DNA of 64,000 bases from Legionellales bacterium (GCA_002709565.1 PAPY01000031.1:71-64070), one strand, 5' to 3'; shown: positions 1-50,329, numbered from the stretch's first letter. The notes: a model not told the origin generated them from the sequence alone. Numbers and translations: made by a program.

Positions 1-758
1 TAACCGGTGCAGGTTCGGGTATAGGTCGTGCCTTGAGTGTATTAATGGCAGAAAATGACCATACTGTCATCGCTATTGGCCGCCGCGAGCAACCCTTGCA
101 GCAACTCAAGAACCATTATCCTAAGCGGGTACAAATCATTCCCGCAGATGTCAGTAAACCAGAAAATCGCGATGCTATTGCTAGTGTTATTAGTAAATAT
201 TCCAATATTGATTATCTCGTTCATAATGCCGGCGTGTTGGAACCAGTGGCGGAATTACGAGATGTTGATTTACATGACTGGCGAGCCCATATGGCTATCA
301 ATGTTGAAGCGCCTTTATTTTTGACTCAAGCCTTGCTGCCACAGTTAGCAGGCGGGCGCATTTTGCATATTTCCAGTGGTGCAGCCCACCGCCCTATTCA
401 TGGTTGGGGTGCGTATTGCACATCAAAGGCTGCTTTTTATATGTTGTTTCAATGTTTGCGGGAAGAATTGCAGAGCTTTAATATCGGTATTGGCAGTGTG
501 CGCCCAGGCGTAGTAGACACACCTATCCAAGACAGAATTCGTCAACTTGATGAAGCGGTTTTTCCCGCGCTGAAAGATTTTCAAGATCTCAAAGAATACA
601 ATAAGCTTATTCCGCCCGCGACCTGTGCTTTGTTTCTCTATTGGATCTTAACCATGACTGATGCTGAGAATTTTACCCGAGAAGAGTGGGATATCTATGA
701 TACCAGTCATCACCATCATTGGTTAGATGGCCAGGATATGGTAGATATTAGCCGATAA
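1..758 (+). CDS. Short-chain dehydrogenase/reductase (SDR) family oxidoreductase, 5'-partial: the gene starts before the window and the Rossmann TGAGSGIGRA motif is at nt 1-30
   Basis: The translation begins mid-gene with the glycine-rich NAD(P)-binding motif (GAGSGIGRA) in frame with the 33..758 ORF. A catalytic YxxxK-like region is present (YCTSKAAFY). Overall SDR size and layout. Confidence 0.8.
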   Translation, partial: TGAGSGIGRALSVLMAENDHTVIAIGRREQPLQQLKNHYPKRVQIIPADVSKPENRDAIASVISKYSNIDYLVHNAGVLEPVAELRDVDLHDWRAHMAINVEAPLFLTQALLPQLAGGRILHISSGAAHRPIHGWGAYCTSKAAFYMLFQCLREELQSFNIGIGSVRPGVVDTPIQDRIRQLDEAVFPALKDFQDLKEYNKLIPPATCALFLYWILTMTDAENFTREEWDIYDTSHHHHWLDGQDMVDISR

Positions 759-771
759 TCAAGGAGTCTAC

Positions 772-1533
772 GTGGATTTTACCTTAAGCAAATACCAACG
801 ATTACTCGAAGCTTGCCAGGCGACAAAGCATGACATTATCACCATGCAGGTTTTTTTTGAATGTCAGCAGCCAGCAACAAATACCATTATTTTGCGTCAT
901 GATGTTGATAGACGCATTAAGAATGCACTCAACATGGCGCGCTTAGAAGCACGCTTAGGTGTCAAAGCAACTTACTATTTTCGAGTGCCATATACTTTCA
1001 AGCCAACGTTAGTTGAAGAAATTGCAAATCTAGGCCACGAAGTGGGATTCCATTATGAAACCCTGGCAAAAACCAAAGGTGATGTGAAGGCAGCCCATGC
1101 TTTGTTTAATGCAGAGCTAGAACAGTTGCGCAGTATTGTTGATATCAAAACTATTTGCATGCACGGTAGTCCTTTGTCACCCTACGATAATCGGGATTTG
1201 TGGCAGGAGTATGATTTTAAAGCGCTAGGGATCATTGGCGAGCCCTATCTATCCATCGATTATGACAAAGTTGCCTATGTGACCGATACGGGTCGTTCTT
1301 GGGGCAGTGATGCGACGAATTTGCGAGACAGAGTAACCACGTCCCAAGCACTCGCACCTGCTATGGGGACAACCGAAGAACTGATTAATTTTGTCGGCAC
1401 CAACCAGCATTCATTGATTATTCAAACCCACCCTGAGCGCTGGGCATATTCGTTGCCAAGTCTCGCGGTCTCTTATGGTCATGATTTTGCGACAAATTGT
1501 GCCAAAAGGCTGATTCGCTTAATGCGCAAATAA
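772..1533 (+). CDS. Hypothetical protein, possibly a NodB-fold polysaccharide deacetylase-like enzyme
   Basis: 253 aa with RHDVD and HGSP motifs reminiscent of divergent polysaccharide deacetylases. It sits at the head of a glycan-modification cluster. Assignment is by motif impression only. Confidence 0.35.
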   Translation: MDFTLSKYQRLLEACQATKHDIITMQVFFECQQPATNTIILRHDVDRRIKNALNMARLEARLGVKATYYFRVPYTFKPTLVEEIANLGHEVGFHYETLAKTKGDVKAAHALFNAELEQLRSIVDIKTICMHGSPLSPYDNRDLWQEYDFKALGIIGEPYLSIDYDKVAYVTDTGRSWGSDATNLRDRVTTSQALAPAMGTTEELINFVGTNQHSLIIQTHPERWAYSLPSLAVSYGHDFATNCAKRLIRLMRK

Positions 1534-1648
1534 TAGCATATTGAGGTTGTACTAGGTAGGATAACTATGTGCAATATGGTACCATCTGGCTCCGAAAAAC
1601 CGATTAATGTGGCCAGTATTTGTCCACCCCAAAAGAGTGAGCATATTT

Positions 1649-2386
1649 ATGTCAAATAGCCAGGATTGTGGTATTGAACGTGGCCAACTCCCAGCAATCA
1701 GCCTTGATTTAGAAGCAAGCCAGCCACAGGACATTCTAGGTTGGGCAACGGGGCAGTTCGGTGCGGACTTAATAATGGCAACGTCCTACGGTTTGGAAGG
1801 CATGGTCATTATTCATATGCTCCATGAGCTCAAGGCTAACTTAACCATTATCAACCTGGATACCGGTTATCAGTTCCCTGAAACCTTGCGTATGCAAGAA
1901 GCGATCAAAGACACCTATGGCTTTGATATCACCTTAGTCAAAGCATCAACAACCACCGAAGAGTATGAAGCCAAGTACGGCGGCAAAGTCTATGAGATGG
2001 ATCCTAATCAATGTTGTTTCGATAGGAAAGTACGTCCGTTGCAGAATGCCCTTGCTGGTAAACCTGCCTGGATAAGCAGTATTCGCCGCGAACAAACTCC
2101 CCAGCGAGCAGCAGCAGGCATTGTTGAGTGGGATGATAAATTTAATCTCATCAAAATTAATCCTCTGGCCAATTGGACATTGGAGCAAGTGAATAGTTTT
2201 ATCAACGACAATAAGATCCCCACTCACCCATTGTATCAGCGCGGTTTTAAAAGTATTGGCTGTTGGCCTTGTACCCGTGCGGTTGAAGCCGATGAAGCTG
2301 AGCGTGCAGGACGTTGGAGTGGCTTTGAGAAACTAGAGTGTGGTTTACACACACGCGCAACGGAAAAGAGTGATGAACATGTTTGA
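1649..2386 (+). CDS. cysH: Phosphoadenosine phosphosulfate (PAPS) reductase, CysH-type (thioredoxin-dependent)
   Basis: PAPS-reductase fold motifs are present. The C-terminal ECGLH motif is characteristic of CysH. The likely start is Met at 1649 (MSNSQDCG...); the ORF track extends to 1607. Confidence 0.8.
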   Translation: MSNSQDCGIERGQLPAISLDLEASQPQDILGWATGQFGADLIMATSYGLEGMVIIHMLHELKANLTIINLDTGYQFPETLRMQEAIKDTYGFDITLVKASTTTEEYEAKYGGKVYEMDPNQCCFDRKVRPLQNALAGKPAWISSIRREQTPQRAAAGIVEWDDKFNLIKINPLANWTLEQVNSFINDNKIPTHPLYQRGFKSIGCWPCTRAVEADEAERAGRWSGFEKLECGLHTRATEKSDEHV

Positions 2387-3158
2387 TTTTTTAGAGTTAC
2401 CATCCCGCGACATCAAACCCCGCAGCAAAGGGTTAACCGTACTCATCGATAATGGCTATAGTACCGAGTTTTATCAAGATGTCATTATCAGCCATGGTCA
2501 ACTCATCGATTATATTAAATTTGGCTGGTGTACGAGTTATATCACTAGAGATTTCGATAAAAAAATACAACTGGCGAAAGATGCAGGTATTGATGTCTTT
2601 TTGGGAGGGACTTTTTTTGAAAAAGCCTATTCGCAAAAAAAATTAGATAACCTTCTAAAGGTGATTGATAGCTATGCCATTACCACAATCGAGATTTCAA
2701 ATGGCACTATTCCAATCTCGAATCAAGAAAAAGCCAGTGTTATTCAACAATTAGCTGGAGACTACCAGGTGTTCAGTGAAGTTGGTTATAAAGAATGCCA
2801 GAGTTCAGAACAACTAACGGCTGCTGAATGGATTGAATACATAAAAGAAGACTTGAATGCGGGTGCTGTCAAAGTCATTACTGAAGCTCGGGAGTCAGGT
2901 AAGAGTGGGCTTTGTGATGCCGAAGGCAATTTAAAGACAGATTTTATTGACGATATTCTTATGTCTGGCATTACCAGTGAACAATTGATCTTTGAAGCAC
3001 CCAATAAAGCTTTACAGCACTATTTTATAGCGCTTATAGGCAGTAATGTTAATTTAGCGAATATCGCGTTTCAAGATATTATCCCATTAGAAACATTGCG
3101 GCTAGGTTTGCGCAGCGATACCTTATTGCAATTTGATAACAAAGGAGAGAACTCATGA
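2376..3158 (+). CDS. (2R)-phospho-3-sulfolactate synthase (ComA family) homolog, which condenses sulfite with PEP
   Basis: The N-terminal region MFDFLELPSRDIKPRSKGLTVLIDNGYS matches the conserved ComA/PF02679 start (FxFLxLPxRxxKPRxxGLTxxIDKG). Size is about 260 aa. It lies immediately downstream of cysH with a 4-bp-type overlap zone. Confidence 0.7.
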   Translation, partial: NMFDFLELPSRDIKPRSKGLTVLIDNGYSTEFYQDVIISHGQLIDYIKFGWCTSYITRDFDKKIQLAKDAGIDVFLGGTFFEKAYSQKKLDNLLKVIDSYAITTIEISNGTIPISNQEKASVIQQLAGDYQVFSEVGYKECQSSEQLTAAEWIEYIKEDLNAGAVKVITEARESGKSGLCDAEGNLKTDFIDDILMSGITSEQLIFEAPNKALQHYFIALIGSNVNLANIAFQDIIPLETLRLGLRSDTLLQFDNKGENS

Positions 3159-3556
3159 GAAAAACCAGCCAAGTGTTTCATTTAGCCATACCCTGTGCGG
3201 ATTTAGATAAGGCAAAAGAATTTTATGTTGATCAATTAGGTTGTGAATTAGCCCGGCGCTATGATGATAGGATTACACTGAATTTTTTTGGTGACCAGGT
3301 TGTTTGCCACTTGGCGCCAGATCAAATTGATGAAGCACCAAAGATGTATCCTCGGCATTTTGGCATAACTTTTGCTGACAAAGATGATTTTGAGGAATTA
3401 CTTGCAAATGCGAAGAGTAATGATGCTACTTTTTTTAAAGATGATTTTGTGCGTTTTGAAGGGCGGCAAGAAGAACATCGGACTTTCTTTTTGATAGACC
3501 CTTCAAATAATTTGCTGGAATTCAAATATTATAACGATACGACCATGATGTACTGA
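3155..3556 (+). CDS. VOC (glyoxalase/bleomycin-resistance/dioxygenase) family protein
   Basis: 133 aa beta-alpha-beta-beta-beta module typical of VOC proteins (HLAIPCADLDKAKEFY...). Its start overlaps the stop of the upstream gene (ATGA). Confidence 0.55.
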   Translation: MRKTSQVFHLAIPCADLDKAKEFYVDQLGCELARRYDDRITLNFFGDQVVCHLAPDQIDEAPKMYPRHFGITFADKDDFEELLANAKSNDATFFKDDFVRFEGRQEEHRTFFLIDPSNNLLEFKYYNDTTMMY

Positions 3557-3578
3557 GGTGATACATTTGAATATTGTG

Positions 3579-4112
3579 ATGATAAGACATTTGCCGACCC
3601 AATGGAATATGAAAGGTGTGCTACAGGGCAGCAAAGATATTGCCTTAGCAGAGATTTCATCTGAGTCAAAGGAACAGATAATTGCCAACAAAAAACAGCT
3701 AGCAGATAAGTACGGTGATTTCGAACATGTCTTTGCTAGCGCGCTAGTAAGAACGCAACAAACTGCGCGTGCTTATGACTATGAAGCACCAACGATTGAG
3801 CCTTTACTAAATGAACTAAATTTTGGTGCGTTTGAAGGCCGTAAAAAATCAGAGCTTATTGCTGCACATAGCGATAGCTGGTTTGATTCTCCAGAGTCTA
3901 TCGTGTTAGGAGAGCCACTAGTTGCACTAAAGCAAAGAGTGAATGATTTCTTTCAAAAGTATGGTAACTGCGAACAGATGCTGGTATTTGGCCATGGCAA
4001 CTGGATCCGCAGTGCCATGTCGTTAGCACAGAATAATAATCTTAACTTACTGAATAAAATTCATTTGGACAACAATCAGATAGTCGAATTAGCATGGGAT
4101 AGTAAAAGATAA
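3579..4112 (+). CDS. Histidine phosphatase family protein (phosphoglycerate-mutase-like), a candidate phosphosulfolactate phosphatase
   Basis: N-terminal catalytic RH motif in MIRHLPTQWN (the RHGxTxWN signature). Size is about 180 aa. The functional role is inferred from neighbours. Confidence 0.6.
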   Translation: MIRHLPTQWNMKGVLQGSKDIALAEISSESKEQIIANKKQLADKYGDFEHVFASALVRTQQTARAYDYEAPTIEPLLNELNFGAFEGRKKSELIAAHSDSWFDSPESIVLGEPLVALKQRVNDFFQKYGNCEQMLVFGHGNWIRSAMSLAQNNNLNLLNKIHLDNNQIVELAWDSKR

Positions 4113-4753
4113 TGTTTGGTAAATATAACATCAACAATGTGTTAGTGTTAGCGCCACATACCGATGATGGTGAGATTGGCTGTGGCGGACTAATTGCTTT
4201 AGCCATTGAGCAAGGACTTAATGTTCATTATGTGGCGTTTTCGAGTGCACAAATCTCACTGCCTGAGGGTGCGCCTAGAGATACGCTAATTAAAGAAGTT
4301 AAAGCAGCCACAGAAGTATTAGGTATCCTCCAGGAAAATTTAATATTGTTTGATTATCCAACACGACGTATGGCGGAGTTTAGACAAGATATTCTTGATG
4401 ATATGATCACCATCCGAGAGCAAATCAAACCAGACTTGATATTGACACCATCTCTTCATGATATCCATCAAGACCATCAAACTATTGCTAACGAGACATT
4501 GCGTTGTTTTAAACGCCAGTCAATTCTCTGTTATGAAGAGCCATGGAATAACATTTCTTTTGCCACGCAATGCTTTGTTAAACTAGATAAGCATCATATC
4601 GATAAAAAAGTCCAGGCCTTACTGTGTTATGAATCGCAGATGCGCAGAACCTACCTTAATGAAGAAAGTATTCGTGCTCTTGCATTAACTCGTGGTACGC
4701 AGCTGGAGGGTGGTTATGCCGAAGCATTTGAAGTTGTGAGATGGATGATTTGA
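4112..4753 (+). CDS. PIG-L/LmbE family N-acetylglucosaminyl deacetylase
   Basis: Diagnostic motif LVLAPHTDDGEIGCGG near the N-terminus (PIG-L family metal-binding HxDD). Size is about 210 aa. Confidence 0.8.
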   Translation: MFGKYNINNVLVLAPHTDDGEIGCGGLIALAIEQGLNVHYVAFSSAQISLPEGAPRDTLIKEVKAATEVLGILQENLILFDYPTRRMAEFRQDILDDMITIREQIKPDLILTPSLHDIHQDHQTIANETLRCFKRQSILCYEEPWNNISFATQCFVKLDKHHIDKKVQALLCYESQMRRTYLNEESIRALALTRGTQLEGGYAEAFEVVRWMI

Positions 4754-5820
4754 TGACAATCTTAAAGCCGATTAATGTTCTTTTAACGGCGGCAGGTTGT
4801 CCTGGCGCATCAACCTGTATTCGTTACCTAAAGTCCATTGCAGAACGTCAAGTTCGAGTCATTGGCGTTGATGCTGAGAAAGAATCCATCGGTCAATTCT
4901 TGGCTGATGGATTTTATCAAATTCCCTCTGCTGAGGATAATGCATATATAGATAGTTTGCTGACTGTCTGTGATCAAGAAAACATTGATTGTCTGGTAGT
5001 GAGTTCAAGTTTTGAAATAGAAGTCATTGCAAAGGCAAAGACGCTATTCGAAGAACAAGGCATTAAAGTGTTAGCGTCTGAACCAGCAGCGCTTGCTATT
5101 GCCAACAACAAGCAGGCAATCTACGAAGCATTCCAAGATAGCGCTATTGTAAAGATCCCCGAGTTTCGGGTAGTGAGTAGTCTTGAAATGTTCATCGAGG
5201 CGTGTCAGGCCATGGGGTATCCAAATAGGGAGCTCTGCTTCAAACCACCACAATCCAAAGGCAGTCGCGGGTTTAGAATTTTAACCGAAACTATCTCACG
5301 AAGAGAACTATTGCTTAATTATAAGCCAGAATCAAAATACATATCGTTACAAGAGTTCACTGAAATTTTTAACAAGGAAGAAGAATTTCCAACACTTGTT
5401 ATCATGGAAGTGCTCGAGGGTGAAGAGATTGATAGTATGGTGATTGCAGATGCTGGAGAGCCTTTGTTGATTACCCACAAAACCCGCGAAAAAGCCCGCG
5501 GCGGCGTGATTACTAATGGTGGACATTGTGAACGCCCTGAGCTGGATAAAGTAATTCGCGAAATCTTACAACATGTCAAATTGTCCTATAATGTGGGTTT
5601 TCAATTCATTGATGGCTATTTACTTGAAATTAATCCACGCTTATCGAGTTTTATCTATACCCGGGATTGGGTAGAGCCGTATTTTGCTATCAAACTTGCA
5701 TTAGGTGAATTTAATCATGCTGATATCAAAAAATTACAGCAACATGTACCTTTAGAGCTGCGTATGCTTAGGTATTTTGACCAAGTTTTTTATGATAAAA
5801 ACCAAATAACTGAGAATTGA
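4741..5820 (+). CDS. ATP-grasp domain ligase (carboxylate-amine ligase type)
   Basis: 359 aa with an ATP-grasp-like central/C-terminal region (ExNPR-type motif LLEINPRLSS). It overlaps the upstream LmbE gene, which suggests translational coupling. Confidence 0.55.
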   Translation: MDDLMTILKPINVLLTAAGCPGASTCIRYLKSIAERQVRVIGVDAEKESIGQFLADGFYQIPSAEDNAYIDSLLTVCDQENIDCLVVSSSFEIEVIAKAKTLFEEQGIKVLASEPAALAIANNKQAIYEAFQDSAIVKIPEFRVVSSLEMFIEACQAMGYPNRELCFKPPQSKGSRGFRILTETISRRELLLNYKPESKYISLQEFTEIFNKEEEFPTLVIMEVLEGEEIDSMVIADAGEPLLITHKTREKARGGVITNGGHCERPELDKVIREILQHVKLSYNVGFQFIDGYLLEINPRLSSFIYTRDWVEPYFAIKLALGEFNHADIKKLQQHVPLELRMLRYFDQVFYDKNQITEN

Positions 5821-5821
5821 T

Positions 5822-7636
5822 ATGTGTGGCATCGTAGGCATTAGTGCAAAAACCAATAACGATTACTCAGATACAATTCGAGCTTTACTGAGCAAGATCA
5901 AACACCGAGGCCCTGAAAGTGAAGGTGTTTTCCAAAAGGGTACCGTTTGGCTCGGCCATCGTCGCTTAAAGATTATCGACATCTCTGACCGCTCAAACCA
6001 GCCACTGGTAACAACCTGTGGCCGATATACGATTAGTTACAATGGTGAGATTTACAATCATCATGAGCTGCGTGATGAACTCATTGGCTTAGGACATCAG
6101 TTTGTCACAACGTCTGATACAGAGGTTATCTTGCTTGCCTATAAGCAATGGGGCAGTGACTGTGTCGAACGGTTCAATGGCATTTGGGCTTTTGCTATTT
6201 TTGATGCGGAATCAAACCAACTGTTTATCTCACGTGACCGTTTTGGAGTGAAGCCGCTCTATTATATCGAGACCAGTGAGTGTTATGCCTTTGCTTCAGA
6301 GATAAAAGCGTTACTGCCACTCCTCAAACAGGTTAAAGCCAGTGCCAAACGGGTAGCGAGCTTTCTAGTTTATGGCGAATGTGAGGATGCCGAGTCGACT
6401 TTTTTTGCGGATATTCATAAGCTGCCTGGTGGGTGTAATCTTCGCTATAATACAGCCACTCAACAAGCCACGATTACTACTTATTATGATATCAAAAGCC
6501 AGCCATTAGATGTTGATCCCCAGGAAGCGCTCGCTAAGGCTAAAGCATTACTGCAATCAAGCATCGATTATCAACGTGTTGCTGATGTGCCGGTTGCGGT
6601 ATCACTGAGTGGCGGCCTAGACAGCTCTGTTATTACCAAATTAGTACTCGATCATTCTACGGCACCATTTACTGCATTCACGGCAATTTCAGAAGACTCA
6701 AATAACAGTGAGCTGCCCTATGCAGAGAAAGTTGCAGATGATACGAAAATAGATTGGGTTAAAATCACACCTAATTATGATGATGTGGTACGAGAACTTC
6801 CCAACGTTGTACATGCTCAAGAAGAACCCTTTAGTACGCCGTCTATCATCATGCAGTATTTTTTGATGAAGCGTGTGCATGAGTCTGGCATTAAGGTTGT
6901 GCTTGATGGCCAAGGGGCTGATGAAGTCTTCCTTGGCTATGAACGTTACATTGTCTTGGAAGTCTTGCGTTTACTGCGAACGAGCCAAGCTATTTCATCT
7001 TTCAGTGATCTACGTCTATGCTTGGCAAATAATGATAAACTGTCAATAAAACGGCTCGCTTATTATACGGCAGGTAGCCTGTTCCCTAAATTACGCCAGC
7101 GCTATATGAATATGCGAGCCAAATACCTCAATACTAAAGGGATCCAGAAGCCAGATTATCTGTATCACTATGCAATGAGTAGCAAGAGATCATGCTTTGA
7201 ACTGCAAAAACTAGAACTCATGGCAACGAATTTGCCGGCCCTATTACGTTTTGCTGACAAGAATTCGATGGCATTCTCTGTAGAAGACCGAGTGCCCTAT
7301 TTGGACCATCGTTTGGTGGAATTGTGTTTATCATTACCACAAAACGTAAAGCTACGTCATGGTTGGACTAAATGGCTGCTGCGAGCAATGTTTGATAAGC
7401 AACTTCCCGATGGCATCATTTGGCGCAAGAATAAAATAGCCTATGAAGCACCCGAGCGTATTTGGCTTAAGCAACTACGACCAGCAATGTACGCGGCGGT
7501 GATGGAATCGCCATTACTGGACGATTATTGTGATAAAGGTAAACTGACGAAGCAAGGCCATAAAGTCGATGATAGACAATTATGGCGTCTGTATTCAGTG
7601 GCACTGTGGGAAAAGGAGTTTTTATCCAATGCCTAA
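5822..7636 (+). CDS. Asparagine synthetase (glutamine-hydrolysing) family amidotransferase (AsnB/WbpS-like)
   Basis: N-terminal MCGIVG Ntn-Cys. SGGLDSS PP-loop motif. 604 aa. Confidence 0.85.
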   Translation: MCGIVGISAKTNNDYSDTIRALLSKIKHRGPESEGVFQKGTVWLGHRRLKIIDISDRSNQPLVTTCGRYTISYNGEIYNHHELRDELIGLGHQFVTTSDTEVILLAYKQWGSDCVERFNGIWAFAIFDAESNQLFISRDRFGVKPLYYIETSECYAFASEIKALLPLLKQVKASAKRVASFLVYGECEDAESTFFADIHKLPGGCNLRYNTATQQATITTYYDIKSQPLDVDPQEALAKAKALLQSSIDYQRVADVPVAVSLSGGLDSSVITKLVLDHSTAPFTAFTAISEDSNNSELPYAEKVADDTKIDWVKITPNYDDVVRELPNVVHAQEEPFSTPSIIMQYFLMKRVHESGIKVVLDGQGADEVFLGYERYIVLEVLRLLRTSQAISSFSDLRLCLANNDKLSIKRLAYYTAGSLFPKLRQRYMNMRAKYLNTKGIQKPDYLYHYAMSSKRSCFELQKLELMATNLPALLRFADKNSMAFSVEDRVPYLDHRLVELCLSLPQNVKLRHGWTKWLLRAMFDKQLPDGIIWRKNKIAYEAPERIWLKQLRPAMYAAVMESPLLDDYCDKGKLTKQGHKVDDRQLWRLYSVALWEKEFLSNA

Positions 7637-8753
7637 GATATGCCACTTTAGTTCCAGTCACCGGCCTGATGATACAAGAGTCGCTCATAAAGAAGTGAAC
7701 TCACTGAGCCAATATTTTGATGATGTGACGTTGGTAACACATCACCACGAAAAGCTTACAAAAATATTTCCTTCAATACACTATGTTGATACCGGCGTGT
7801 CTATGCCCCAGAAACGTTGGCAGCGTATAACTATTGGCGCATGGCGAGTTTATCGAGCAGCAGTAAAAGTCAATGCTGATATTTATCACTTCCATGATCC
7901 TGAATTGCTCCCCTATGTCATTGCTTTGCGCTTAAGACGGAAAAAAGTGATTTATGATGTCCATGAGGATTTAGCCAAAGATATTCGCTCCAAAGTATGG
8001 ATCCCTAAAGTTTTTCGCTCAATTATTGCGACAATGGTTGATTTAGTCGAAAAGACTTTATCACGCTTTTGCAGCGCAGTGGTGCCTGCTTGTGAGCCGA
8101 TGACGGAAATATTCTATCCTTACAATAAAAATACCATCGCAATCAATAATTATCCGGAGTTGGCACTTTATCCAAGCCAACCAGGGCTCAAAAAACGACA
8201 AGCTTGTTATCTAGGCACTATTACTCGAACTCGGGGTATCAAGCAGGCCATTGAGGCATGTCATCGCGCGAATATTAAATTGGTGCTAGGTGGAAATTTT
8301 CATGACGAGATATTATTTGCTGAGTGCAAAGCAATGCCGGGGTGGGAGAATGTTGAGTGGCTAGGCTATATCCCCCATGATCAAGCAATCGCGATTATCA
8401 GCCAATCTTTAGTAGGTCTATTGCTGCAAACATTTACCCAGCACTACCAACCCATTAAGCTATACGAGTATATGGCGTCAGGTATTCCAGTCATAGCATC
8501 TGATTATCAACAATGGATAGATATTGTCGAAAAAAATAAGCTCGGTTTTTGTGTTGATCCCCATAGCATTGATTCAATATGTGAAGCACTTAATCAATTA
8601 TTAGCTGATGAAAGTATGGCTCAACAAATGGGTGCTCAGGCTAAAGATTATGTTAGCCAGCATTATAGCTGGGAACAAGAAGCACAAAAACTCTACAAGT
8701 TATATGAAAGTTTAGCCAGTCCGCAAGCACAATCAGTTAGGAGTAAAACGTGA
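7629..8753 (+). CDS. Glycosyltransferase family 4 (GT-B, GT1-like)
   Basis: C-terminal EYMASGIPVIASD motif (the EX7E region of retaining GT4 enzymes). About 375 aa from Met at 7629; the ORF track starts at 7569 but overlaps the upstream stop. Confidence 0.8.
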   Translation: MPKICHFSSSHRPDDTRVAHKEVNSLSQYFDDVTLVTHHHEKLTKIFPSIHYVDTGVSMPQKRWQRITIGAWRVYRAAVKVNADIYHFHDPELLPYVIALRLRRKKVIYDVHEDLAKDIRSKVWIPKVFRSIIATMVDLVEKTLSRFCSAVVPACEPMTEIFYPYNKNTIAINNYPELALYPSQPGLKKRQACYLGTITRTRGIKQAIEACHRANIKLVLGGNFHDEILFAECKAMPGWENVEWLGYIPHDQAIAIISQSLVGLLLQTFTQHYQPIKLYEYMASGIPVIASDYQQWIDIVEKNKLGFCVDPHSIDSICEALNQLLADESMAQQMGAQAKDYVSQHYSWEQEAQKLYKLYESLASPQAQSVRSKT

Positions 8754-9916
8754 AAATATTGATTTTAAATTGTTTCAGTCGTAATGCATTGGCTGTCATC
8801 AATAGCCTCGATAAGTCTTATGAACTTATTGGTGCCCATACTCGAAAACGCGGCGTTATTAAACCTAACAAACTTTTAGCCAGCAAACGCTTGGCAAAAC
8901 TAGTCACCTATGAGCATCCAAACCAAAATAGTGAATCATTTAAGAATGATATTATTAGGGTCATCAATGAAAATAGTATTGACGCTGTGATTGCCACGGG
9001 CACAAGTACTACCAACTATCTCTCATTTAATAAAGACGCGATTGAATCAGCAACTTCTGCCAAGGCATTGGTTGAAAAGTATGAAATATTTTCCAAGTTA
9101 ACCGATAAATGGCATACCTATCAACTCTGTGAAGAGATTGGTCTTCCAGTGCCAAAGTCAATTTTATTAAAAGATGATGAAACGACTCGGCAACAAATTG
9201 CCAAACTTACGTTTCCTGTGGTGGCGAAACCACGGATATCATTTGCCTCTCATGGTGTCTGTTTCTTCGATACTTATGATGAGTTAATCGCTAATATCGA
9301 CAAGTTAACGGGCTACGCTGCCATTGATGGCACGGAGCAACCCTCTTATATGGTGCAAGAGCGTATTACCGGAACATTGCATGATGTTTGTTTGTCTGCT
9401 AAGAATGGTGATGTTTCAATGTTAATGACACAACAGCGGGTGATGACCCTGCATGATTTTGGCGGTGGTGGCATCATCAACTTAACCACCAATGAGCCTG
9501 AAATGGCAGGATTAGCAACCCAATTGATCAAAGCAACACATTGGAATGGACTCGCTCTGTTTGATTTTGTTAAAACCCCTGATGGCAAATACTATCTACT
9601 TGAGATCAATCCAAAAGTATGGGGCACGACCTATTTAACGACAGTTGCTGGGCTTAATATGGTGCAGAATATTTTTGACATATTTGTCCTTGATAAACCG
9701 GTTAGTTTTAATAACCAGTACAGTGAGAATGTCTTATACCGCTGGTTATTCCCTGAGTGTTTTGCTGCCTGGACATTACCACCGCGTAACCCTAAAGCCA
9801 TTGTTAAGCGCGTGCATAAGACTTTTTCTAGGCATGGGGCGAGCCAAGTCAACAGTAATATCAAGCTCTCTGATCTACGGCATTTGCTGGGAACAGTATT
9901 AGAAAAAGGCGGTTAG
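8750..9916 (+). CDS. ATP-grasp domain protein (second copy)
   Basis: 388 aa. ATP-grasp-like motifs (LLEINPKVWG). It overlaps the upstream GT4 stop (ATGA-type coupling). Confidence 0.55.
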   Translation: MKILILNCFSRNALAVINSLDKSYELIGAHTRKRGVIKPNKLLASKRLAKLVTYEHPNQNSESFKNDIIRVINENSIDAVIATGTSTTNYLSFNKDAIESATSAKALVEKYEIFSKLTDKWHTYQLCEEIGLPVPKSILLKDDETTRQQIAKLTFPVVAKPRISFASHGVCFFDTYDELIANIDKLTGYAAIDGTEQPSYMVQERITGTLHDVCLSAKNGDVSMLMTQQRVMTLHDFGGGGIINLTTNEPEMAGLATQLIKATHWNGLALFDFVKTPDGKYYLLEINPKVWGTTYLTTVAGLNMVQNIFDIFVLDKPVSFNNQYSENVLYRWLFPECFAAWTLPPRNPKAIVKRVHKTFSRHGASQVNSNIKLSDLRHLLGTVLEKGG

Positions 9917-9922
9917 ATATCA

Positions 9923-11272
9923 ATGAAGCGATACCGGGATAAAGTCATCGATTTATTTCGCAACACAGACAAGTTTAGCCACCAAGCGGCGACGGTCGTA
10001 GGCTGGACGGCTATCTCGCAGATCATCATGTTTCTGGGGATCCCTTTTGTTAGCCGTATCTTCACCCCTGAAGCCTTTGGTGTCTATGCTGTGTATGCAG
10101 CGGTTATTTATATCCTTAACGGTGTTGTTTCTTTGGGCTGTGAGTTATTGATCCCCAACCCAAGTTCGGATGAAGAAGGCGCGACACTATTTTGGGTATC
10201 AATTATTAATTTATTATTGGTAACCATTGTTATTTCGATCCTGTTGCTGATAAGCAACTATACCGCTGTCTGGGAAACACTTAATTTAACGGCGCTTAGT
10301 CATTATCAATGGCTCATTGTTTTTGGCGCTGTTGCTATTGGTCTCAGGAATTGCTTGCTGTATTGGTTTACTCGAATACGGCGTTTTAACCAGGTAGGTA
10401 AAGCTCGGTTTTTACAAGCTCCAGTTATTGTCTTTGTTCAGGTTGGGGTTGGTTATTTATATCCACACCCAGATGTATTAATCATTGGTGGCGTATTGAG
10501 TTGGTTAATATCCGATATTTATCTGCTCATGAAGTTAGACGGTGAGCAACGAAAGTTATTGCGTCAAGGACAAGCAACACAATATTTCAGTGTGCTGCAA
10601 TCCAATAAGGCTTTTTTTAGCCATACAACGTCATCGTTATTCTTATTGAATTTATCGAACTATCTCCCGACCATACTTTTTGCGATAAGCTTTGACCCCG
10701 CTGTGGCAGCCCTTTATGCATTAGCTTACCAAGCTTTTAGCCCATTAGATTTGATCAGTAATGCGATTATTCAACTTTATATTGGTGAGGGTAATCGGAT
10801 TGTGCGTAACCACCCCCTTCAACTAAAAACATTCTACAAGAAAATGCTAGTGGGACTCAGTTTGATTACTATCGTTCCGATTACCATTGCTGCAATTTGG
10901 GGTGGGCCGATATTCGGTTTTGTCTTTGGTGCCAAATGGTATCATGCGGGTGTCTATGCCCAAATCATGGCCTTCGCGATGATGATGCGTTTTGTGGTGA
11001 TAGCTGCTTCACAGAATTTGGCAGTGCTCAAAAAGCAAGGTTTGAATTTGGCCTGGAGCAGTATCTATATAGTACTGATCCTGGCAGCATTTATTCCAGC
11101 GAACCTATTAGCCGGATTCACCAAAGCAGAATACACGATTGTATTATTATCATGCATGATGATGCTATCTTATTTTATCTTAGTACTATTAAATTTTGGC
11201 GTTATTCACCGACAGATCCCAAATTATGTCGGTTCTAATAACAATGGCTTTAGAGAACAAGCGGAAAGTTAA
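9923..11272 (+). CDS. wzx: Wzx-like polysaccharide/O-antigen flippase (PST family, multi-TM)
   Basis: 449 aa, about 12 predicted TM segments, PST-family N-terminal organisation, in a glycan cluster. Confidence 0.7.
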   Translation: MKRYRDKVIDLFRNTDKFSHQAATVVGWTAISQIIMFLGIPFVSRIFTPEAFGVYAVYAAVIYILNGVVSLGCELLIPNPSSDEEGATLFWVSIINLLLVTIVISILLLISNYTAVWETLNLTALSHYQWLIVFGAVAIGLRNCLLYWFTRIRRFNQVGKARFLQAPVIVFVQVGVGYLYPHPDVLIIGGVLSWLISDIYLLMKLDGEQRKLLRQGQATQYFSVLQSNKAFFSHTTSSLFLLNLSNYLPTILFAISFDPAVAALYALAYQAFSPLDLISNAIIQLYIGEGNRIVRNHPLQLKTFYKKMLVGLSLITIVPITIAAIWGGPIFGFVFGAKWYHAGVYAQIMAFAMMMRFVVIAASQNLAVLKKQGLNLAWSSIYIVLILAAFIPANLLAGFTKAEYTIVLLSCMMMLSYFILVLLNFGVIHRQIPNYVGSNNNGFREQAES

Positions 11273-11278
11273 ACGACA

Positions 11279-14269
11279 ATGATTGAGACATCCTATTACC
11301 CTATTTTATTAATTTTACTCCAGTGTATTTTTACCTTTATTTTAAGCCCACTTAGCGTGTATGCTTGGGCTTGTCAATTTCTCAGGCTGAAGTCAGATCA
11401 AGACAAGCAACGGTTTTTCTTATTAAGCCTAGGAACGGGACCATTATTGATTGTTTGGCTGTTAGTCATGCTGATGTATTTTGTTCCGGGTCTTTCGGCT
11501 TGGGGCTATATTGTGGCAATAAATATTATTTTTATTCTGCCACTGGTCTTTTTATATCGTTATATGATGGATTTTATGTCCTATTTGCGACGTTTTTTTG
11601 CCGGACTGTTTGGAGACATCCGCGAGAATAAACTTTACCTATTGCTTTATAGCTGTGCCTTGATCGTTATTGCAGGCATGTTTTTTGCGAGTATCTTTTT
11701 ACCATTTACCGCAAATGATCCTATTGAATATGCGGTTACAGCAAAGATTTTTTATCAACATATGTCGGTAGGCATGTACCCTATCGTTAATGGTGAAGCA
11801 TTTGGTGGATTCATTGCACCATATACGCATCCCTTGGCCTATGCAGGCTCTCTCTTATGGATGTATTTAATTCAAGGAACCGCTGATCATTTCGGTCTAG
11901 CACGAATTATTTCTCCGTTTTTTGCCTTGATAACATTTATCACGATTGTTGGCTTACTACGACCAAAGAACAAAACAATAGCAATTGTTGCAGGTCTTTT
12001 TTATTTAGCAACACCAACTTTGCTGCATGGTTTTATTCAACATCAAATTGAGGCTGTAAGACTATATGGCTTTTTTGCCTTCTTCATGGTTGTGCCGTAC
12101 CTAATAATGAGGCCCCAGTGGCGGTCTGGCATAGTTACTGGGATTTTTTTAGGAATATGTTTATTCACCCACTCTCTTGGTCTATTGGCTATTCCAATAT
12201 TTCTTGTTATCTATTTCCTCCATGCCCAGGATGTATCCTTGTGGACGAAATTACGTAACTGCGCGATTCTGATCAGCGTAGGTTTAATATTTGTTCTGTT
12301 GCGCTACAGTATTAATTTCTCGGTATTTGGCGGATTAATTCAGGATAGTACATCGGTTAGAGAGATCCCATCATTATTTTACAACCAAATTAATGAAATT
12401 AACCAAGGTATTGCGACAACTAAACAAAAATGGCTGAATGGTTTCTTGCCGTTGTTTACGGGTTATATCTGGTATGGTTTATGTTATGCCATATTGCCTT
12501 TTGGGTTACTGCTAGTAAACAAATCATTTTTAAAGACGTTATGGCGTAATAAAGGCCTCAAGTTTGACAATCACGAAGATGTAACTGTTGCAGTCTCTGT
12601 CTTGGTTGCACTGGGCTATGTCAGTATGATCATCTTCTCTATTATAATCGGCCGAACGGATTTCATTATTAATTTCCGTTATATGTTGACAGCACAACCG
12701 CTTGCGGCAATTGCTGCAAGTTGGATTTTGGTCGTCCTTTGTAGACGCTATTTTACAAAGAACTGGCGCAAAATAATTGCTTGCTTCACCCTACTAAGCT
12801 TATTCTTCGCAACGCCTCTCGTCGGTGCAGATGTGAAGTCGGTTAATTTAACGCCGCACACCTTACTCGATGATGATTTTGCAAAGGCAGCTTATGGCAT
12901 GCCACTCTATCAGTTGTTGCGTGAATACAATCATGTTGCCACAGCAAATGATAAATTGCTTTCATTTACGAATGGCCAAACAGCATATTTTGCTAACACG
13001 CCCTTTGTTTATCGTACTGATGAAAGACTGGTGCCCTTGTATACAGCACGCACAAAAAGTGATGTGCTTAATTTTCTGCATGATTTAGGCGTGACCTATA
13101 TCCTGGTGCCAAGTTATGGCCAAATTTATATTACGCAGTCAAAGTTACAAGATTTATTAGCGGATCCAGCTTATAGCGAATTGGTAGCTGCCAGTAAAGG
13201 TGGGCAGTTATATCGTCTTCATTTTAAACCGTTGGCTTATATGACTAAATTGGTCCCATTAGTTAATTCCAACTTCGAGATGTTTAATGGCCGCCATGAG
13301 CCGCTAGGCTGGACGGCTGAGGATCTTGGAAATATTTCACAAGATATATCGGGCGGTTTATTTTTATCACATCCATCAGACTTTCTGAGACAGAGTAGCA
13401 CCCTTCATAGCATTTCTACAAAGCCGACTGTAGGATGTTCGCCGTTGAGTAATGCTGTTATCGCTTCAGGCAAACGCTATCACTTGTCTGCTAGTATTAA
13501 TGGATTAGGAATGCTAAATTTTGGCAATCAGTTTTATCATAAATCAGGTTACTCTCAGAGCATTCAATCTATCCCTTCCTTCACGCTACGGAATGATAGC
13601 AAGATGAAGCCACTATTATTCCAGTTTGCTACTGATCCAAGCCCTTATCACTATGATTTTTCCTTGTCATTCATGGGTCCAGGAAAGATCCTTTTAAAAA
13701 ATATTAAACTTGAGGAAATAACGTATGTTGACGAGTCGCATAATTACTTTAATGACCCTCAAAAGCAAGCACTAATAGATCGAGGCTGGGGGCTTTATCA
13801 AAGGAATTTAATTCATGCTGCACTAGTACCAGTAGTATCGACGCTTAAAAATAATAATGCCAATACAATATATCAGTGGTTTAGCCATTGGTCAGCAGTA
13901 TCTAAAAATGATCATAATTTTATTACAATTTTTCCTGAAGATAGCCAGAAATATTTTATTACTACGCCGCCCATAGCGTTATCTTACCCTGAAGTGAATA
14001 TTCATAAGGTGTTAATCTTGCGGGGGGAAGGTATTGTTCGTGTGCGATGGTATGGTAGATTAGCCAACGAACACAGCAAACCTATCTCAGCAACGTCGAT
14101 AGTTGCATTAAGCAACGAGGACATTCATATAGACTTTAGTTTGTCAGCAGAGCAGCAACAAAACCTAGAAAATGAATATCCGACACTGAGGGAGATATAC
14201 GTACAATTAGAATACATACGACCCTCCCATAATAAGCCAGGAGAATTCATGGTTGCTTCGGCAAAATAA
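11279..14269 (+). CDS. Large polytopic membrane protein with a roughly 500-aa C-terminal soluble domain; putative GT-C-fold glycosyltransferase (ArnT/PMT/GtrC-like)
   Basis: 996 aa. The N-terminal ~500 aa is very hydrophobic with at least 12 TM segments. An acidic motif (NDPIEY) follows the early TM helices, where GT-C enzymes carry their catalytic D/E. The next gene encodes a GT2 polyprenyl-phosphate sugar synthase, the classic two-gene pairing seen in ArnC/ArnT and GtrB/GtrC. Confidence 0.45.
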   Translation: MIETSYYPILLILLQCIFTFILSPLSVYAWACQFLRLKSDQDKQRFFLLSLGTGPLLIVWLLVMLMYFVPGLSAWGYIVAINIIFILPLVFLYRYMMDFMSYLRRFFAGLFGDIRENKLYLLLYSCALIVIAGMFFASIFLPFTANDPIEYAVTAKIFYQHMSVGMYPIVNGEAFGGFIAPYTHPLAYAGSLLWMYLIQGTADHFGLARIISPFFALITFITIVGLLRPKNKTIAIVAGLFYLATPTLLHGFIQHQIEAVRLYGFFAFFMVVPYLIMRPQWRSGIVTGIFLGICLFTHSLGLLAIPIFLVIYFLHAQDVSLWTKLRNCAILISVGLIFVLLRYSINFSVFGGLIQDSTSVREIPSLFYNQINEINQGIATTKQKWLNGFLPLFTGYIWYGLCYAILPFGLLLVNKSFLKTLWRNKGLKFDNHEDVTVAVSVLVALGYVSMIIFSIIIGRTDFIINFRYMLTAQPLAAIAASWILVVLCRRYFTKNWRKIIACFTLLSLFFATPLVGADVKSVNLTPHTLLDDDFAKAAYGMPLYQLLREYNHVATANDKLLSFTNGQTAYFANTPFVYRTDERLVPLYTARTKSDVLNFLHDLGVTYILVPSYGQIYITQSKLQDLLADPAYSELVAASKGGQLYRLHFKPLAYMTKLVPLVNSNFEMFNGRHEPLGWTAEDLGNISQDISGGLFLSHPSDFLRQSSTLHSISTKPTVGCSPLSNAVIASGKRYHLSASINGLGMLNFGNQFYHKSGYSQSIQSIPSFTLRNDSKMKPLLFQFATDPSPYHYDFSLSFMGPGKILLKNIKLEEITYVDESHNYFNDPQKQALIDRGWGLYQRNLIHAALVPVVSTLKNNNANTIYQWFSHWSAVSKNDHNFITIFPEDSQKYFITTPPIALSYPEVNIHKVLILRGEGIVRVRWYGRLANEHSKPISATSIVALSNEDIHIDFSLSAEQQQNLENEYPTLREIYVQLEYIRPSHNKPGEFMVASAK

Positions 14270-14367
14270 TTATTTGTAGGCCGTGGTTAATGATATACTA
14301 AGGCCATTTTAGGAGTCAGCGCTTTTTTTAGTCAGTCAGTGGTTAAAAAAGCTATAGTTAGGAGCCA

Positions 14368-15321
14368 GTGATGTTCAAAAATAAAACAGTTTGTGTGGTG
14401 GTGCCTTGCCACAATGAAGAAACCCAGATTGGTAAAGTGATAACCACTATGCCGGACTATGTTGATAATATCATCATTGTTAACGATGCCAGCCAGGACA
14501 AAACCTCTGATGTCGTCAGATCATATCAGGCGAATCATCCTCGGGTCACTCTGATAGAACATGAGCAGAATCAAGGTGTTGGTGGTGCTATTGCCACTGG
14601 CTATAAGTGGGCGCGGGACAATGAAGTGGATGTAGCCGTAGTAATGGCCGGCGATGGACAAATGGATCCCGTCGATTTGCCAGCAATTCTGGAGCCGGTG
14701 GTAACGGGTGAAGCAGATTACTCTAAGGCAAATCGCTTAACTACCGGTGAATCCTACAAGAATATTCCGAAAGTTCGCTATTTTGGTAATTCAGCTTTAA
14801 CCTTACTGACTAAAATTGTTTCCGGTTATTGGCATGTGACAGACTCACAAACAGGCTACACCGCAATCAACAAAGAAGCGTTACATACCATTGATTGGGA
14901 CAACATGTACAAACGCTACGGGCAGCCTAATGACTTGCTGGTGCGTTTGAATGTCTATAACTTCAAGGTCAAAGATGTTAAGACCCATCCCGTTTATAAT
15001 GTGGGTGAGTACTCAGGTATCAAAGTTCGCAAAGTAATTTTTTCCATTGGTTGGTTGTTGGTAAAACTGTTCTTCTGGCGTATGAAAGAAAAATACATTA
15101 TCCGTGATTTCCACCCATTGGTATTTTTCTATGTGCTCGGATTATTATTGGCAGTGGTTAGCCTAGGCTTCGGTGTTGATTTAATATTTCGTTGGATCAA
15201 AGACGGCTATGTACCGCAAATGACGGCGCTAGCGTTAATGTTTACGACCATTACTGGGTTGCAGTCAGGCTTTTTCGCCATGTGGATGGACTCAGATTAT
15301 AACCGTGATTTGCAGCGGTAA
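14368..15321 (+). CDS. GT2 family polyprenyl-phosphate glycosyltransferase (GtrB/ArnC/DPM1-like) with C-terminal TM anchors
   Basis: VVVPCHNEE N-terminal motif, DAS/DxD region, and two C-terminal TM helices. 317 aa. Confidence 0.8.
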   Translation: MMFKNKTVCVVVPCHNEETQIGKVITTMPDYVDNIIIVNDASQDKTSDVVRSYQANHPRVTLIEHEQNQGVGGAIATGYKWARDNEVDVAVVMAGDGQMDPVDLPAILEPVVTGEADYSKANRLTTGESYKNIPKVRYFGNSALTLLTKIVSGYWHVTDSQTGYTAINKEALHTIDWDNMYKRYGQPNDLLVRLNVYNFKVKDVKTHPVYNVGEYSGIKVRKVIFSIGWLLVKLFFWRMKEKYIIRDFHPLVFFYVLGLLLAVVSLGFGVDLIFRWIKDGYVPQMTALALMFTTITGLQSGFFAMWMDSDYNRDLQR

Positions 15322-15326
15322 TAGCT

Positions 15327-17294: not shown

Positions 17295-17301
17295 GGTAGT
17301 T

Positions 17302-19248: not shown

Positions 19249-19268
19249 AGCCATAGCAAAGCTCTGGG

Positions 19269-25980: not shown

Positions 25981-26173
25981 GTTGCTGACTCCCGCATTAA
26001 ATCTAAAGAGGGAGCATTCTACCCATGGCCGGCACTGTATTGCAAGATTTGTAAGCAAAGAAAGACAAAGCATTGGTCAGTATGTAACCGCAAGGATGCT
26101 TTGCATTACCTAGCAGAGTTGTTCATAATATCCCCCCTCTTTTGAGTTATATTAATGCCTTTTTATTGGAGAT

Positions 26174-47525: not shown

Positions 47526-47679
47526 GGGTTACTCGCTGTCTTTCAACTAAGTGTATTAGACCAGGCTTTATTTGACAATGTACAGAGCTAAGCTATTGAT
47601 TCTTCCATCACCTCTGGAAGTATTTGTAAAACTTCTCCAATAATGGCTATAATGTAGCTATTATTGGAGGAAAAAGGCA

Positions 47680-49672: not shown

Positions 49673-49675
49673 CTG

Positions 49676-50158: not shown

Positions 50159-50329
50159 CGCTTCCTGCTACAAAGGATATTGATTAAAGCATTGAAGCAA
50201 GTTGGTTAGATAATGTCAAGATAGCGTAGCATGTTTCGACGTTGTTACGTATACTTAAATATGGTTGCAGCACTTGCCTTTTTACTGAGGAGGTGCGTTG
50301 CTTGAGGTAACAACGAGTAGGTTTATAGC

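Follow-up and report, generated by a model that had tools for sequence, protein, structure and literature searches.

A 64,000-nucleotide stretch of DNA from a Legionellales bacterium (GCA_002709565.1, PAPY01000031.1:71-64070), called the window throughout, carries an operon-like block in which genes predicted to make a sulfonated three-carbon (C3) acid are joined to genes predicted to re-acylate an amino sugar. On the + strand, from 1607 to 8753, the block encodes CysH, ComA, a vicinal oxygen chelate (VOC) protein, a histidine phosphatase, an LmbE-family deacetylase, an ATP-grasp ligase (AGr1), an AsnB-type amidotransferase and a family 4 glycosyltransferase (GT4). It is likely that the acid derived from ComA is covalently attached to an envelope glycan. 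For the narrower mechanism, in which a sulfonated C3 acyl donor built by the operon would end up on an amino sugar within a surface glycan, the evidence leans cautiously in favour.

The same eight genes occur in the same order, with identities of 64–73%, in a second locus (L007; loci from other genomes are given L numbers), which is a different, unrelated glycan cluster of the ABC-transporter type. An acid-activating enzyme and a gene that generates a sugar amine recur with the ComA-VOC pair in other genomes as well, and it is for this reason that the acyl-donor reading is favoured.

The operon and its setting

The packing of the block is operon-like, with genes that overlap or lie no more than 6 nt apart. 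From cysH to the gene for a 996-residue protein, the successive gaps are -14, -4, +1, -1, -1, +1, -8, -4, +6 and +6 nt. The domain calls of all eight genes exceed the Pfam gathering thresholds. An earlier, sequence-only reading of this DNA had listed seven consecutive genes followed by a GT4 gene and all of these were found, with matches to each of the profile hidden Markov models that it had proposed for the open reading frames (ORFs): PF02679, PF02585, PAPS_reduct and the ATP-grasp profiles. The span that it gave, 1607–5820, ends after the ATP-grasp gene; the AsnB and GT4 genes exist and lie beyond it. It had also placed the genes in an O-antigen cluster. Here, the glycan cluster stands and an O-antigen is a plausible product, with neither WaaL nor Wzz identified in the window cluster.

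The source of the window is a marine (Tara Oceans) metagenome-assembled genome (MAG) that bears the NCBI label "Legionellales bacterium". Proteins identical to those of the window are also encoded on a 254-kb Tara scaffold. A Legionellales host with a Dot/Icm system fits, since DotM and genes of the type IV secretion system (T4SS) type are present in the window.

Sulfite supply and ComA

CysH, a predicted assimilatory sulfonucleotide reductase, scores 246 bits on NCBIfam NF002537 (cutoff 154) and falls below the cutoffs of both sub-models, TIGR02055 and TIGR02057. It contains the motifs CC122, CWPC205-208 and ECGLH230. The combination of CC...CxxC and ECGLH is, we take it, the signature of the Fe-S enzymes that reduce adenosine 5'-phosphosulfate (APS) and not of those that reduce 3'-phosphoadenosine 5'-phosphosulfate (PAPS). 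Because of this signature, APS is the likelier substrate, so that the step from PAPS to sulfite in the sequence-only reading is not supported. The cysH gene lies directly upstream of comA in L007 too. Sulfate activation is encoded by Sat/CysDN genes adjoining the window cluster (24268–28983), and these are predicted to supply APS/PAPS. Two sulfate-activation sets stand side by side there and their two APS-kinase domains imply that PAPS is produced. O-sulfation of the same glycan with PAPS as donor is possible; the window contains no recognised sulfotransferase.

ComA covers positions 2–243 of the 243 in PF02679, with 266.1 bits against a gathering threshold of 25.2. It matches Bacillus subtilis YitD (1U83; 265 bits, E 3.8e-78) and Methanocaldococcus jannaschii ComA (1QWG; 177 bits, E 2.7e-51). 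The position of M. jannaschii Lys137, presumably the proposed catalytic lysine of ComA, is conserved (EVGKK aligned to EVGYK, the second lysine being kept). As the score on the archaeal equivalog TIGR03849 is below cutoff (233.9 versus 280 bits), the protein is placed in the bacterial, YitD-like branch. These matches agree with the ComA call made earlier, and the ORF then given (2376..3158) ends correctly; its start is the ATG at 2373, as position 2376 reads AAC. From homology to characterised enzymes, ComA is predicted to make (2R)-phospho-3-sulfolactate from sulfite and phosphoenolpyruvate (PEP).

Among the window ORFs scanned, no match was found to ComB (PF04029), ComC or ComDE, in line with the stated absence of a canonical ComB/ComC, and none to the aspartase/fumarase-type enzymes XcbC-E.

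A histidine phosphatase in the position of ComB

To survey other genomes, metagenome contigs were probed with the window VOC protein. This gave at least 492 relatives, of which 80 loci were kept, and all of their ORFs were compared using phmmer. ComB (PF04029) adjoins ComA-VOC in 15 of these loci and His_Phos_1 in 25, and the two never occur together. Since ComB and His_Phos_1 fill one operon slot in this mutually exclusive manner, there is good evidence that the histidine phosphatase is a non-orthologous replacement for ComB and a putative phosphosulfolactate phosphatase, as the sequence-only reading had supposed.

The window protein itself is a branch-1 His_Phos_1 member (93.2 bits) with no match to the PF04029 domain. 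In its 181-residue form, the RH motif is at residues 7–8 and GHG is at 142–144. ComA is again accompanied by an adjacent orthologue of the window type in L007, L010 and Legionella londiniensis (40% identity).

The VOC protein

No partner of this ComA clade is more constant than the VOC protein, which is almost obligate. Of the 80 VOC-family loci, 69 include ComA, usually immediately upstream. The family itself is large and, at a threshold of E ≤ 1e-15, comprises at least 1,700 database clusters. The earlier route contained the ComA and phosphatase steps, which the comparisons support, and left the VOC protein out.

The closest structure is 3RRI, an uncharacterised protein (E 1e-50, 65% identity, TM-score 0.96). 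The "sulfolactic acid" ligand found among Protein Structure Initiative entries belongs to 1VR0 and not to 3RRI. For the AlphaFold2 (AF2) model, which has a pLDDT of 95.7, the Foldseek matches after 3RRI are FosA, FosB and FosX (TM-score ~0.70). The resemblance to Fos enzymes is structural only, with an identity of 22–24% and a score of 23.5 bits on the NCBIfam FosA model, for which the cutoff is 250. His9, His68 and Glu122 are invariant in the family, together with several Arg, Lys and Tyr residues, and the spacing of these three resembles what we take to be the FosA metal triad, His7/His64/Glu110. FosA, FosB and FosX bind a small C3 oxyanion at the metal.

The VOC protein may act on sulfolactate, for example by inversion at C2, which is a guess. 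Its product is probably still a carboxylic acid because carboxylate-activating enzymes come after it. In addition, as the protein is almost obligate beside ComA, the ligated acid may be a VOC-modified compound and not plain sulfolactate. The VOC gene is also present in many Bacillaceae, where the chemistry of spore sulfolactate may involve it.

The deacetylase and its ATP-grasp partner

LmbE scores 71.8 bits on PF02585 (threshold 28.2) and has the Zn-binding motifs HTDD16 and HQDH119. Its best NCBIfam match is BshB1, at 69.6 bits against a cutoff of 182.5. It is predicted to expose a sugar amine by de-N-acetylation.

AGr1, which is annotated by NCBI as "hypothetical protein", exceeds the cutoffs of PylC-like_N (52.1 bits) and ATPgrasp_Ter (38.7 bits). 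Structure prediction followed by Foldseek, as had been suggested for this protein, returned a three-domain ATP-grasp fold: the AF2 model (pLDDT 89.3) matched 2PN1, carbamoyl phosphate synthetase, biotin carboxylases, PurK and RizA. The best of these, 2PN1, is an uncharacterised structural-genomics protein, and no close characterised relative of AGr1 was found among the PDB matches. When genomes were scanned with an AGr1 alignment, 51 loci from many bacterial and archaeal phyla were recovered. LmbE lies inside the fetched flank in 35 of them, usually adjacent to AGr1 and often accompanied by a GT4 gene, so that the comparison with the bacillithiol/mycothiol order of GT4, LmbE and ligase made at the outset is apt.

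Up to three sulfonate supplies adjoin LmbE/AGr1: the ComA route, a cysteate route and possibly import. The presence of several such options is consistent with a sulfonated substrate for AGr1. The import option is an SsuA/TauA-like ABC importer beside LmbE/AGr1 in at least seven loci. The cysteate route is found in Promethearchaeota, where CysH, cysteate synthase (549 bits versus a cutoff of 325), a fused sulfopyruvate decarboxylase and a GT4 are encoded in one operon, which suggests a sulfoacetaldehyde- or cysteate-derived glycan substituent. In the three MAGs concerned (L035, L041 and L049, at ~5000–11700 in each), the operon is divergent from genes for an Lrp-like regulator, AGr1 and LmbE. 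These operons lie inside glycan clusters (NeuB, CMP-transferase, epimerases) and the hosts are non-methanogenic Asgard archaea.

Other neighbours of AGr1 include an MR_MLE enolase-superfamily protein and an FMN_red-like protein, found in ~11 loci (L021, L023, L025, L028-30, L037, L039, L042, L047 and L050). The former resembles o-succinylbenzoate synthase/N-acylamino acid racemase (OSBS/NAAAR) and the latter has 514 residues with a CxxCxxC motif; both directly adjoin AGr1. In the Verrucomicrobia locus L025, the pair is situated at the VOC position of the otherwise syntenic Vicingaceae locus L022.

Upstream of the window block, the gene for a 253-residue protein (772–1533) encodes the motifs RHDVD and GHEVGFH (GHxxGxH). 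It is kept as a low-confidence accessory, the similarity to the VimE-like protein of L010 being weak (pairwise E 0.004). Relatives of this protein stand beside AGr1-type genes in the LmbE-less loci L028-30 and L039, and also in L083, which suggests that the family is an alternative deacetylase.

ComA-VOC neighbourhoods in other genomes

The enzymes that follow ComA-VOC elsewhere are those expected if the acid is an acyl donor to a sugar amine, as first proposed. AGr1 accompanies VOC in the window, in L007 and in L022 (VOC-AGr1-LmbE), and a 32%-identical relative does so in L083 (AGr1-like-ComB-ComA-VOC). A different ATP-grasp family, AGr3, occurs with ComA-VOC in seven metagenome loci and in L010, and judged by position also in L. 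londiniensis. An AMP-binding, adenylating enzyme is present with ComA-VOC in 37 loci, usually together with an AT3 membrane acyltransferase (26 loci). Genes that generate amines, namely those for LmbE, a carbohydrate esterase family 4 (CE4)-like deacetylase or DegT, are often nearby.

Cultured carriers are L. londiniensis, Haloferula helveola and Sulfurimonas aquatica. In H. helveola, the order is 4,6-dehydratase, nucleotidyltransferase, DegT, a 315-residue protein, ATP-grasp, ComA, VOC, ComB and two MBOATs, so that a nucleotide diphosphate (NDP)-amino-sugar route precedes ATP-grasp-ComA-VOC-ComB. In S. aquatica, ComB-ComA-VOC-DegT is situated beside an AMP-binding enzyme, an 80-residue protein and a protein resembling aminoglycoside N-acetyltransferases. 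In both L010 and L. londiniensis (UGON01000002.1, ~1.586–1.598 Mb), the ComA module is found together with WbpA/B/D/E-like genes and a gene for a VimE-like deacetylase.

A common operon in many soil metagenome loci (L084-L141) is His_Phos_1-ComA-VOC-AMP-binding-AT3, with a divergent two-component system (HAMP histidine kinase and OmpR-type regulator). Its make-up suggests regulated O-acylation of the Dlt kind, with the ComA/VOC acid as the presumed substrate.

The ComA-VOC pair is also found away from glycan genes. In L008 and L009, which have none, a gene of the TauE/SafE family (sulfite/sulfonate exporter-like) lies ~1 kb upstream of the pair, and glutathione S-transferase-like and glutaredoxin-like genes come after it. 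In the spore-former Evansella cellulosilytica (L143, CP002394.1), ComA-VOC stands alone between clpX and lonB/lonA with no adjacent ComB.

A proposed route

The genes of the window can be arranged into a route. CysH would reduce APS, provided by the neighbouring Sat/CysDN enzymes, to sulfite, and ComA would condense sulfite with PEP into (2R)-phospho-3-sulfolactate. The histidine phosphatase would strip off the 2-phosphate to give sulfolactate, which the Fos-like VOC protein may then modify, epimerisation at C2 being a guess. In parallel, GT4 would add an N-acetylhexosamine (HexNAc) to a lipid-linked or other glycoside intermediate and LmbE would take the N-acetyl group off that residue. AGr1 would convert the sulfonated acid into an acyl phosphate at its carboxylate and then join it to the free sugar amine through an amide bond, so that the product would be an N-(3-sulfolactyl)-type amino sugar. 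AsnB may amidate another carboxylate, probably that of a uronic acid, in the manner of WbpS. Finally, the Wzx-like flippase and the protein with 13 transmembrane (TM) helices would export and assemble the glycan. What the acceptor sugar is, what AsnB does and what is finally made are predictions from the genes present.

Several points weigh against this route. Every chemical step has been deduced from computed homology and gene context, and the VOC step rests on a guess. The window holds a second ATP-grasp protein (AGr2), and the VOC-adjacent ATP-grasp of other genomes belongs to the third family, AGr3; the assignment of AGr1 as the sulfolactyl ligase is therefore based mainly on L007, where AGr1 is the sole ATP-grasp gene found in 17 kb. 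In Magnetococcales and Phycisphaerales, ComA is missing from the vicinity of AGr1 relatives that are 55–60% identical, and some of these relatives adjoin the MR_MLE and FMN_red pair instead. AGr1 may accept other acids, or ComA may be encoded elsewhere in those genomes. On SsuA_fam, the binding protein of the importer reaches 145 bits, where the cutoff is 163.5. AsnB needs a carboxylate, and the genes found in the window include none of a uronic-acid pathway. An adjacent phosphatase is absent from 29 of the 69 ComA-VOC loci.

Alternative explanations

The alternative that survives best, and that we nevertheless regard as unlikely, is that two cassettes were fused by chance, such that the ComA-derived acid is used by AGr2 or goes to another acceptor and LmbE-AGr1, as a general pair for N-acyl exchange, installs a non-sulfonated acid or an amino acid. 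LmbE-AGr1 does occur without ComA in ~45 loci, including the 55–60%-identical relatives, and the VOC-adjacent ATP-grasps of other genomes are ATP-grasp_3 enzymes that AGr2 resembles more closely than AGr1 does. AGr2 is 20% identical to AGr1 and 55% identical to the second ATP-grasp of L010. L010 and L. londiniensis have ComA-VOC with neither LmbE nor AGr1 found in the fetched flanks; L010 has the AGr2 orthologue, and L. londiniensis has a possible counterpart, a 390-residue ATP-grasp_3 protein placed by the relative position of its gene. Set against this, L007 keeps the eight-gene order without AGr2, L083 and L022 join AGr1-type genes to VOC in other arrangements, and other LmbE-AGr1 loci hold independent sulfonate-supply genes.

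A bacillithiol-like glycoside is less probable still. In this scheme, GT4 would put GlcNAc on the 2-hydroxyl of sulfolactate, making the sulfonated acid an aglycone and not an acyl donor; LmbE would deacetylate the sugar, the ATP-grasp enzyme would add an amino acid to the glucosamine (GlcN) amine and AsnB would amidate the sulfolactate carboxylate. This arrangement would give AsnB a carboxylate, and sulfolactate shares the 2-hydroxy acid skeleton of malate, the acceptor of BshA. The GT4-LmbE-ligase triad is conserved, and LmbE has BshB1 as its best NCBIfam match while GT4 matches BshA weakly. However, the scores are far from the cutoffs (BshA 38.5 versus 273.7 bits; BshB 69.6 versus 182.5) and neither BshC nor MshC is present. 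In addition, most ComA-VOC loci pair with a carboxylate-activating enzyme, with no GT4 or LmbE in their gene tables or in the phmmer scan, and glycan assembly, with flippases or ABC exporters, is the setting in the window, in L007 and at the archaeal loci.

It is very improbable that sulfolactate or a derivative is a free, soluble metabolite, spore-like or an osmolyte, which merely shares an operon with glycan genes. B. subtilis does make free sulfolactate using yitCD and yitBA-yisZ (PMC517825), and the solitary ComA-VOC pairs of Evansella and of L008, near TauE, would fit such a role. In contrast, the window genes have translationally coupled overlaps with those for LmbE and ATP-grasp, the fused gene order is kept in L007, and ComA-VOC is found again and again, across unrelated taxa, with genes for acid activation and for amino sugars.

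Coenzyme M (CoM) biosynthesis, of which ComA is the first enzyme in archaea and to which membership of the ComA family alone would point, can be dismissed given the absence of ComB, ComC, ComDE and XcbC-E-type matches among the ORFs scanned, the Legionellales host with Dot/Icm genes and the glycan-synthesis context.

Two further candidates were set aside. A taurine or cysteate amide on a uronic acid lacks, in the window, an aminotransferase or decarboxylase that would turn sulfolactate into an amine, and the conserved partner of the ligase is a deacetylase. A phosphodiester-linked phosphosulfolactate, by analogy to glyceramide-2-phosphate, is not favoured, given the phosphatase found with ComA-VOC in 40 loci.

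Relation to known systems

The acyl-donor route can be compared with several established pathways. Sulfate activation and reduction genes are located beside ComA-ComB in the B. subtilis yitBA-yisZ/yitCD operons, which provide a precedent (PMC517825). Like the yit operons, the window has a ComA-family synthase, a sulfonucleotide reductase and sulfate activation, and relatives of its ComA clade carry ComB. Unlike CoM and spore sulfolactate synthesis, it has a histidine phosphatase for ComB, no ComC/ComDE and a Fos-like VOC protein in the operon, and the product is apparently passed to ligases and glycan enzymes instead of being accumulated or made into CoM. The VOC model superposes on those of the Fos enzymes, whereas the gene is linked to ComA and has no resistance context.

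The likeness to bacillithiol and mycothiol assembly lies in a GT4, an LmbE-family Zn deacetylase and an ATP-dependent ligase that would act on the freed GlcN amine. The ligase differs, as it is an ATP-grasp enzyme and not BshC or the CysRS-like MshC, and equivalog scores are far below cutoffs (GT4 also scores only 36 bits on MshA, cutoff 462.5). The window genes are in a polymer-export cluster and the supply genes are predicted to make a sulfonated acid, not a thiol.

In the Wbp/Vim pathway of Porphyromonas gingivalis and Tannerella forsythia, deacetylation by VimE, aminoacyl transfer by VimA and amidation by WbpS have been described (PMC7468200). The shared logic is that an N-acetyl group is removed, the amine is re-acylated with another acid and a carboxylate is amidated by an AsnB-type enzyme; the association of the ComA module with Wbp-like and VimE-like genes in L010 and L. 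londiniensis is a further likeness. The window differs in using LmbE and not CE4, ATP-grasp and not the FemAB/GNAT-like VimA, and a dedicated sulfonate pathway. WbpA/B/E/D genes and VimA were not found in the window, where AsnB-type enzymes are the only members of this set.

The last comparison is with Cj1438 of Campylobacter jejuni HS:2, which we take to be an ATP-grasp amidoligase of glycan modification that activates a uronic acid carboxylate. AGr1, with its PylC-like N-terminal domain, resembles Cj1438 and PylC in predicted ATP-grasp amide chemistry on or near a sugar. In contrast to Cj1438, AGr1 has a deacetylase as its conserved partner, from which one would expect the amine to come from the sugar.

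Novelty and significance

Each of the enzyme families has been described before and there are precedents for the remodelling logic; it is the combination that is new. Here, a predicted sulfonate-acid pathway, with a Fos-like VOC protein and a phosphatase that would replace ComB, appears to be wired to amino-sugar N-acylation, and the combination seems to be widely distributed. A full-text literature search, the coverage of which is incomplete, found no description of sulfolactyl-type or other sulfonated (C-S bonded) acyl substituents on surface glycans of bacteria or archaea, or of this gene set, as the sequence-only reading had expected of the module. Within the same limits, searches for ComA with polysaccharide, sulfolactate with glycan terms and taurine amides yielded nothing relevant. 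Apparent matches (a SAR11 transporter island, an Alteromonas gene list and a Bradyrhizobium paper) were unrelated.

The operon may belong to a widespread and as yet undescribed class of envelope decorations in which sulfolactate-derived, sulfonated C3 acyl groups are placed on amino sugars or hydroxyls, a generalisation that is possible and somewhat doubtful. The parts of such a class appear to be interchangeable. Acid synthesis would be by ComA, VOC and either ComB or a histidine phosphatase; activation by ATP-grasp enzymes of two VOC-adjacent families, or by an AMP-binding enzyme with an AT3, MBOAT or N-acyltransferase; and acceptor preparation by LmbE, a CE4-like deacetylase or DegT. If this is correct, the LmbE/ATP-grasp pair would be fed by cysteate synthase and sulfopyruvate decarboxylase in Asgard archaea and by sulfonate importers elsewhere, and sulfolactate would undergo a new reaction catalysed by the VOC protein.

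Sulfonates are a major medium of exchange in the sulfur cycle, both in the sea and in soil. If the proposal holds, lipopolysaccharide (LPS) or capsule would carry a permanently charged anionic tag that is resistant to phosphatases and sulfatases. Such a tag would change charge, recognition by phage and complement, and metal binding, and it would represent a previously uncounted pool of organosulfur. Testable functions are also proposed for three unannotated families: the ComA-linked VOC protein, the AGr1 ATP-grasp and the histidine phosphatase that would replace ComB.

Gene content of the window

The features of the block and its surroundings are listed in Table 1. Downstream of the block are genes for a GT2, a second AsnB, a GATase-WbuX fusion, an AT3-SGNH acyltransferase and a second Wzx-like flippase. 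Beyond the glycan genes are Sat/CysC, CysD and CysN/CysC, followed by HldE and HldD.

Table 1. Position and basis of assignment of genes in the 64,000-nucleotide window
Feature	Position	Strand	Basis and remarks
253-aa protein	772-1533	+	Possible divergent CE4-like deacetylase, accessory, low confidence; no Pfam/NCBIfam match
CysH	1607-2386	+	PAPS_reduct 159 bits; database gene call starts at 1649
ComA	2373-3158	+	PF02679 266 bits
VOC protein (Fos-like)	3155-3556	+	Glyoxalase 47.6 bits
Histidine phosphatase	3558-4112	+	His_Phos_1 93 bits; database gene call starts at 3567
LmbE/PIG-L de-N-acetylase	4112-4753	+	PIG-L 71.8 bits
AGr1 ATP-grasp	4741-5820	+	PylC-like_N 52 bits, ATPgrasp_Ter 38.7 bits; database start at 4753
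AsnB-type glutamine-dependent amidotransferase (WbpS-like)	5822-7636	+	Asn_synthase 239 bits and GATase_7
GT4 glycosyltransferase	7629-8753	+	Glycos_transf_1 82.8 bits
AGr2, second ATP-grasp	8750-9916	+	ATP-grasp_3 53 bits
Wzx-like flippase	9923-11272	+	Polysacc_synt_3
996-aa protein	11279-14269	+	13 TM helices predicted, N-terminal
GATase-WbuX-like fusion, 648 aa	17302-19248		MCGI start; TIGR03573 147 bits, below cutoff
Sat-APS kinase fusion	24268-26073	minus	PUA_2, ATP-sulfurylase and APS kinase (Pfam)
CysD	26174-27079		Pfam; divergent from Sat fusion
CysN-APS kinase fusion	27079-28983		Pfam

A scan of positions 1–19500 for promoters and terminators gave counts equal to those of shuffled sequence and was uninformative on transcription units. 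No tRNA gene was found in the window and no clear island boundary was seen in its composition profile.

AsnB begins with MCGI and scores 463 bits on TIGR01536; on TIGR03108, the window AsnB-type enzymes reach 349 bits, below the 817 cutoff. An AsnB gene follows AGr1 in L007 and in Phycisphaerales loci as well. The GT4 gene occupies the same position in L007. The Wzx-like flippase and the 996-residue protein form a pair that is conserved in L010. The latter has its 13 TM helices in the first 520 residues, followed by a soluble C-terminal half of ~470 residues, has no Pfam/NCBIfam match and may be a polymerase or a GT-C-like enzyme. The GATase-WbuX fusion unites a class-II glutamine amidotransferase with a WbuX-like N-acetyl-sugar amidotransferase and is probably an acetamidino-forming enzyme. 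It has an orthologue in L010 (829 bits); in L. londiniensis, a GATase-only gene of 646 codons is found in the same position.

Further downstream, the region 43323–57937 encodes PhaC, a BCCT-like transporter, a T2SSE-type ATPase, a T4SS TraI-like protein and DotM, and also contains a truncated gene resembling those of class-II aminoacyl-tRNA synthetases (GenX/PoxA-like). Between hldD and Mla-like ABC genes, positions 31667–32875 encode a highly charged protein of 402 residues, rich in Lys, Glu and Asp, with no TM segment and no family match.

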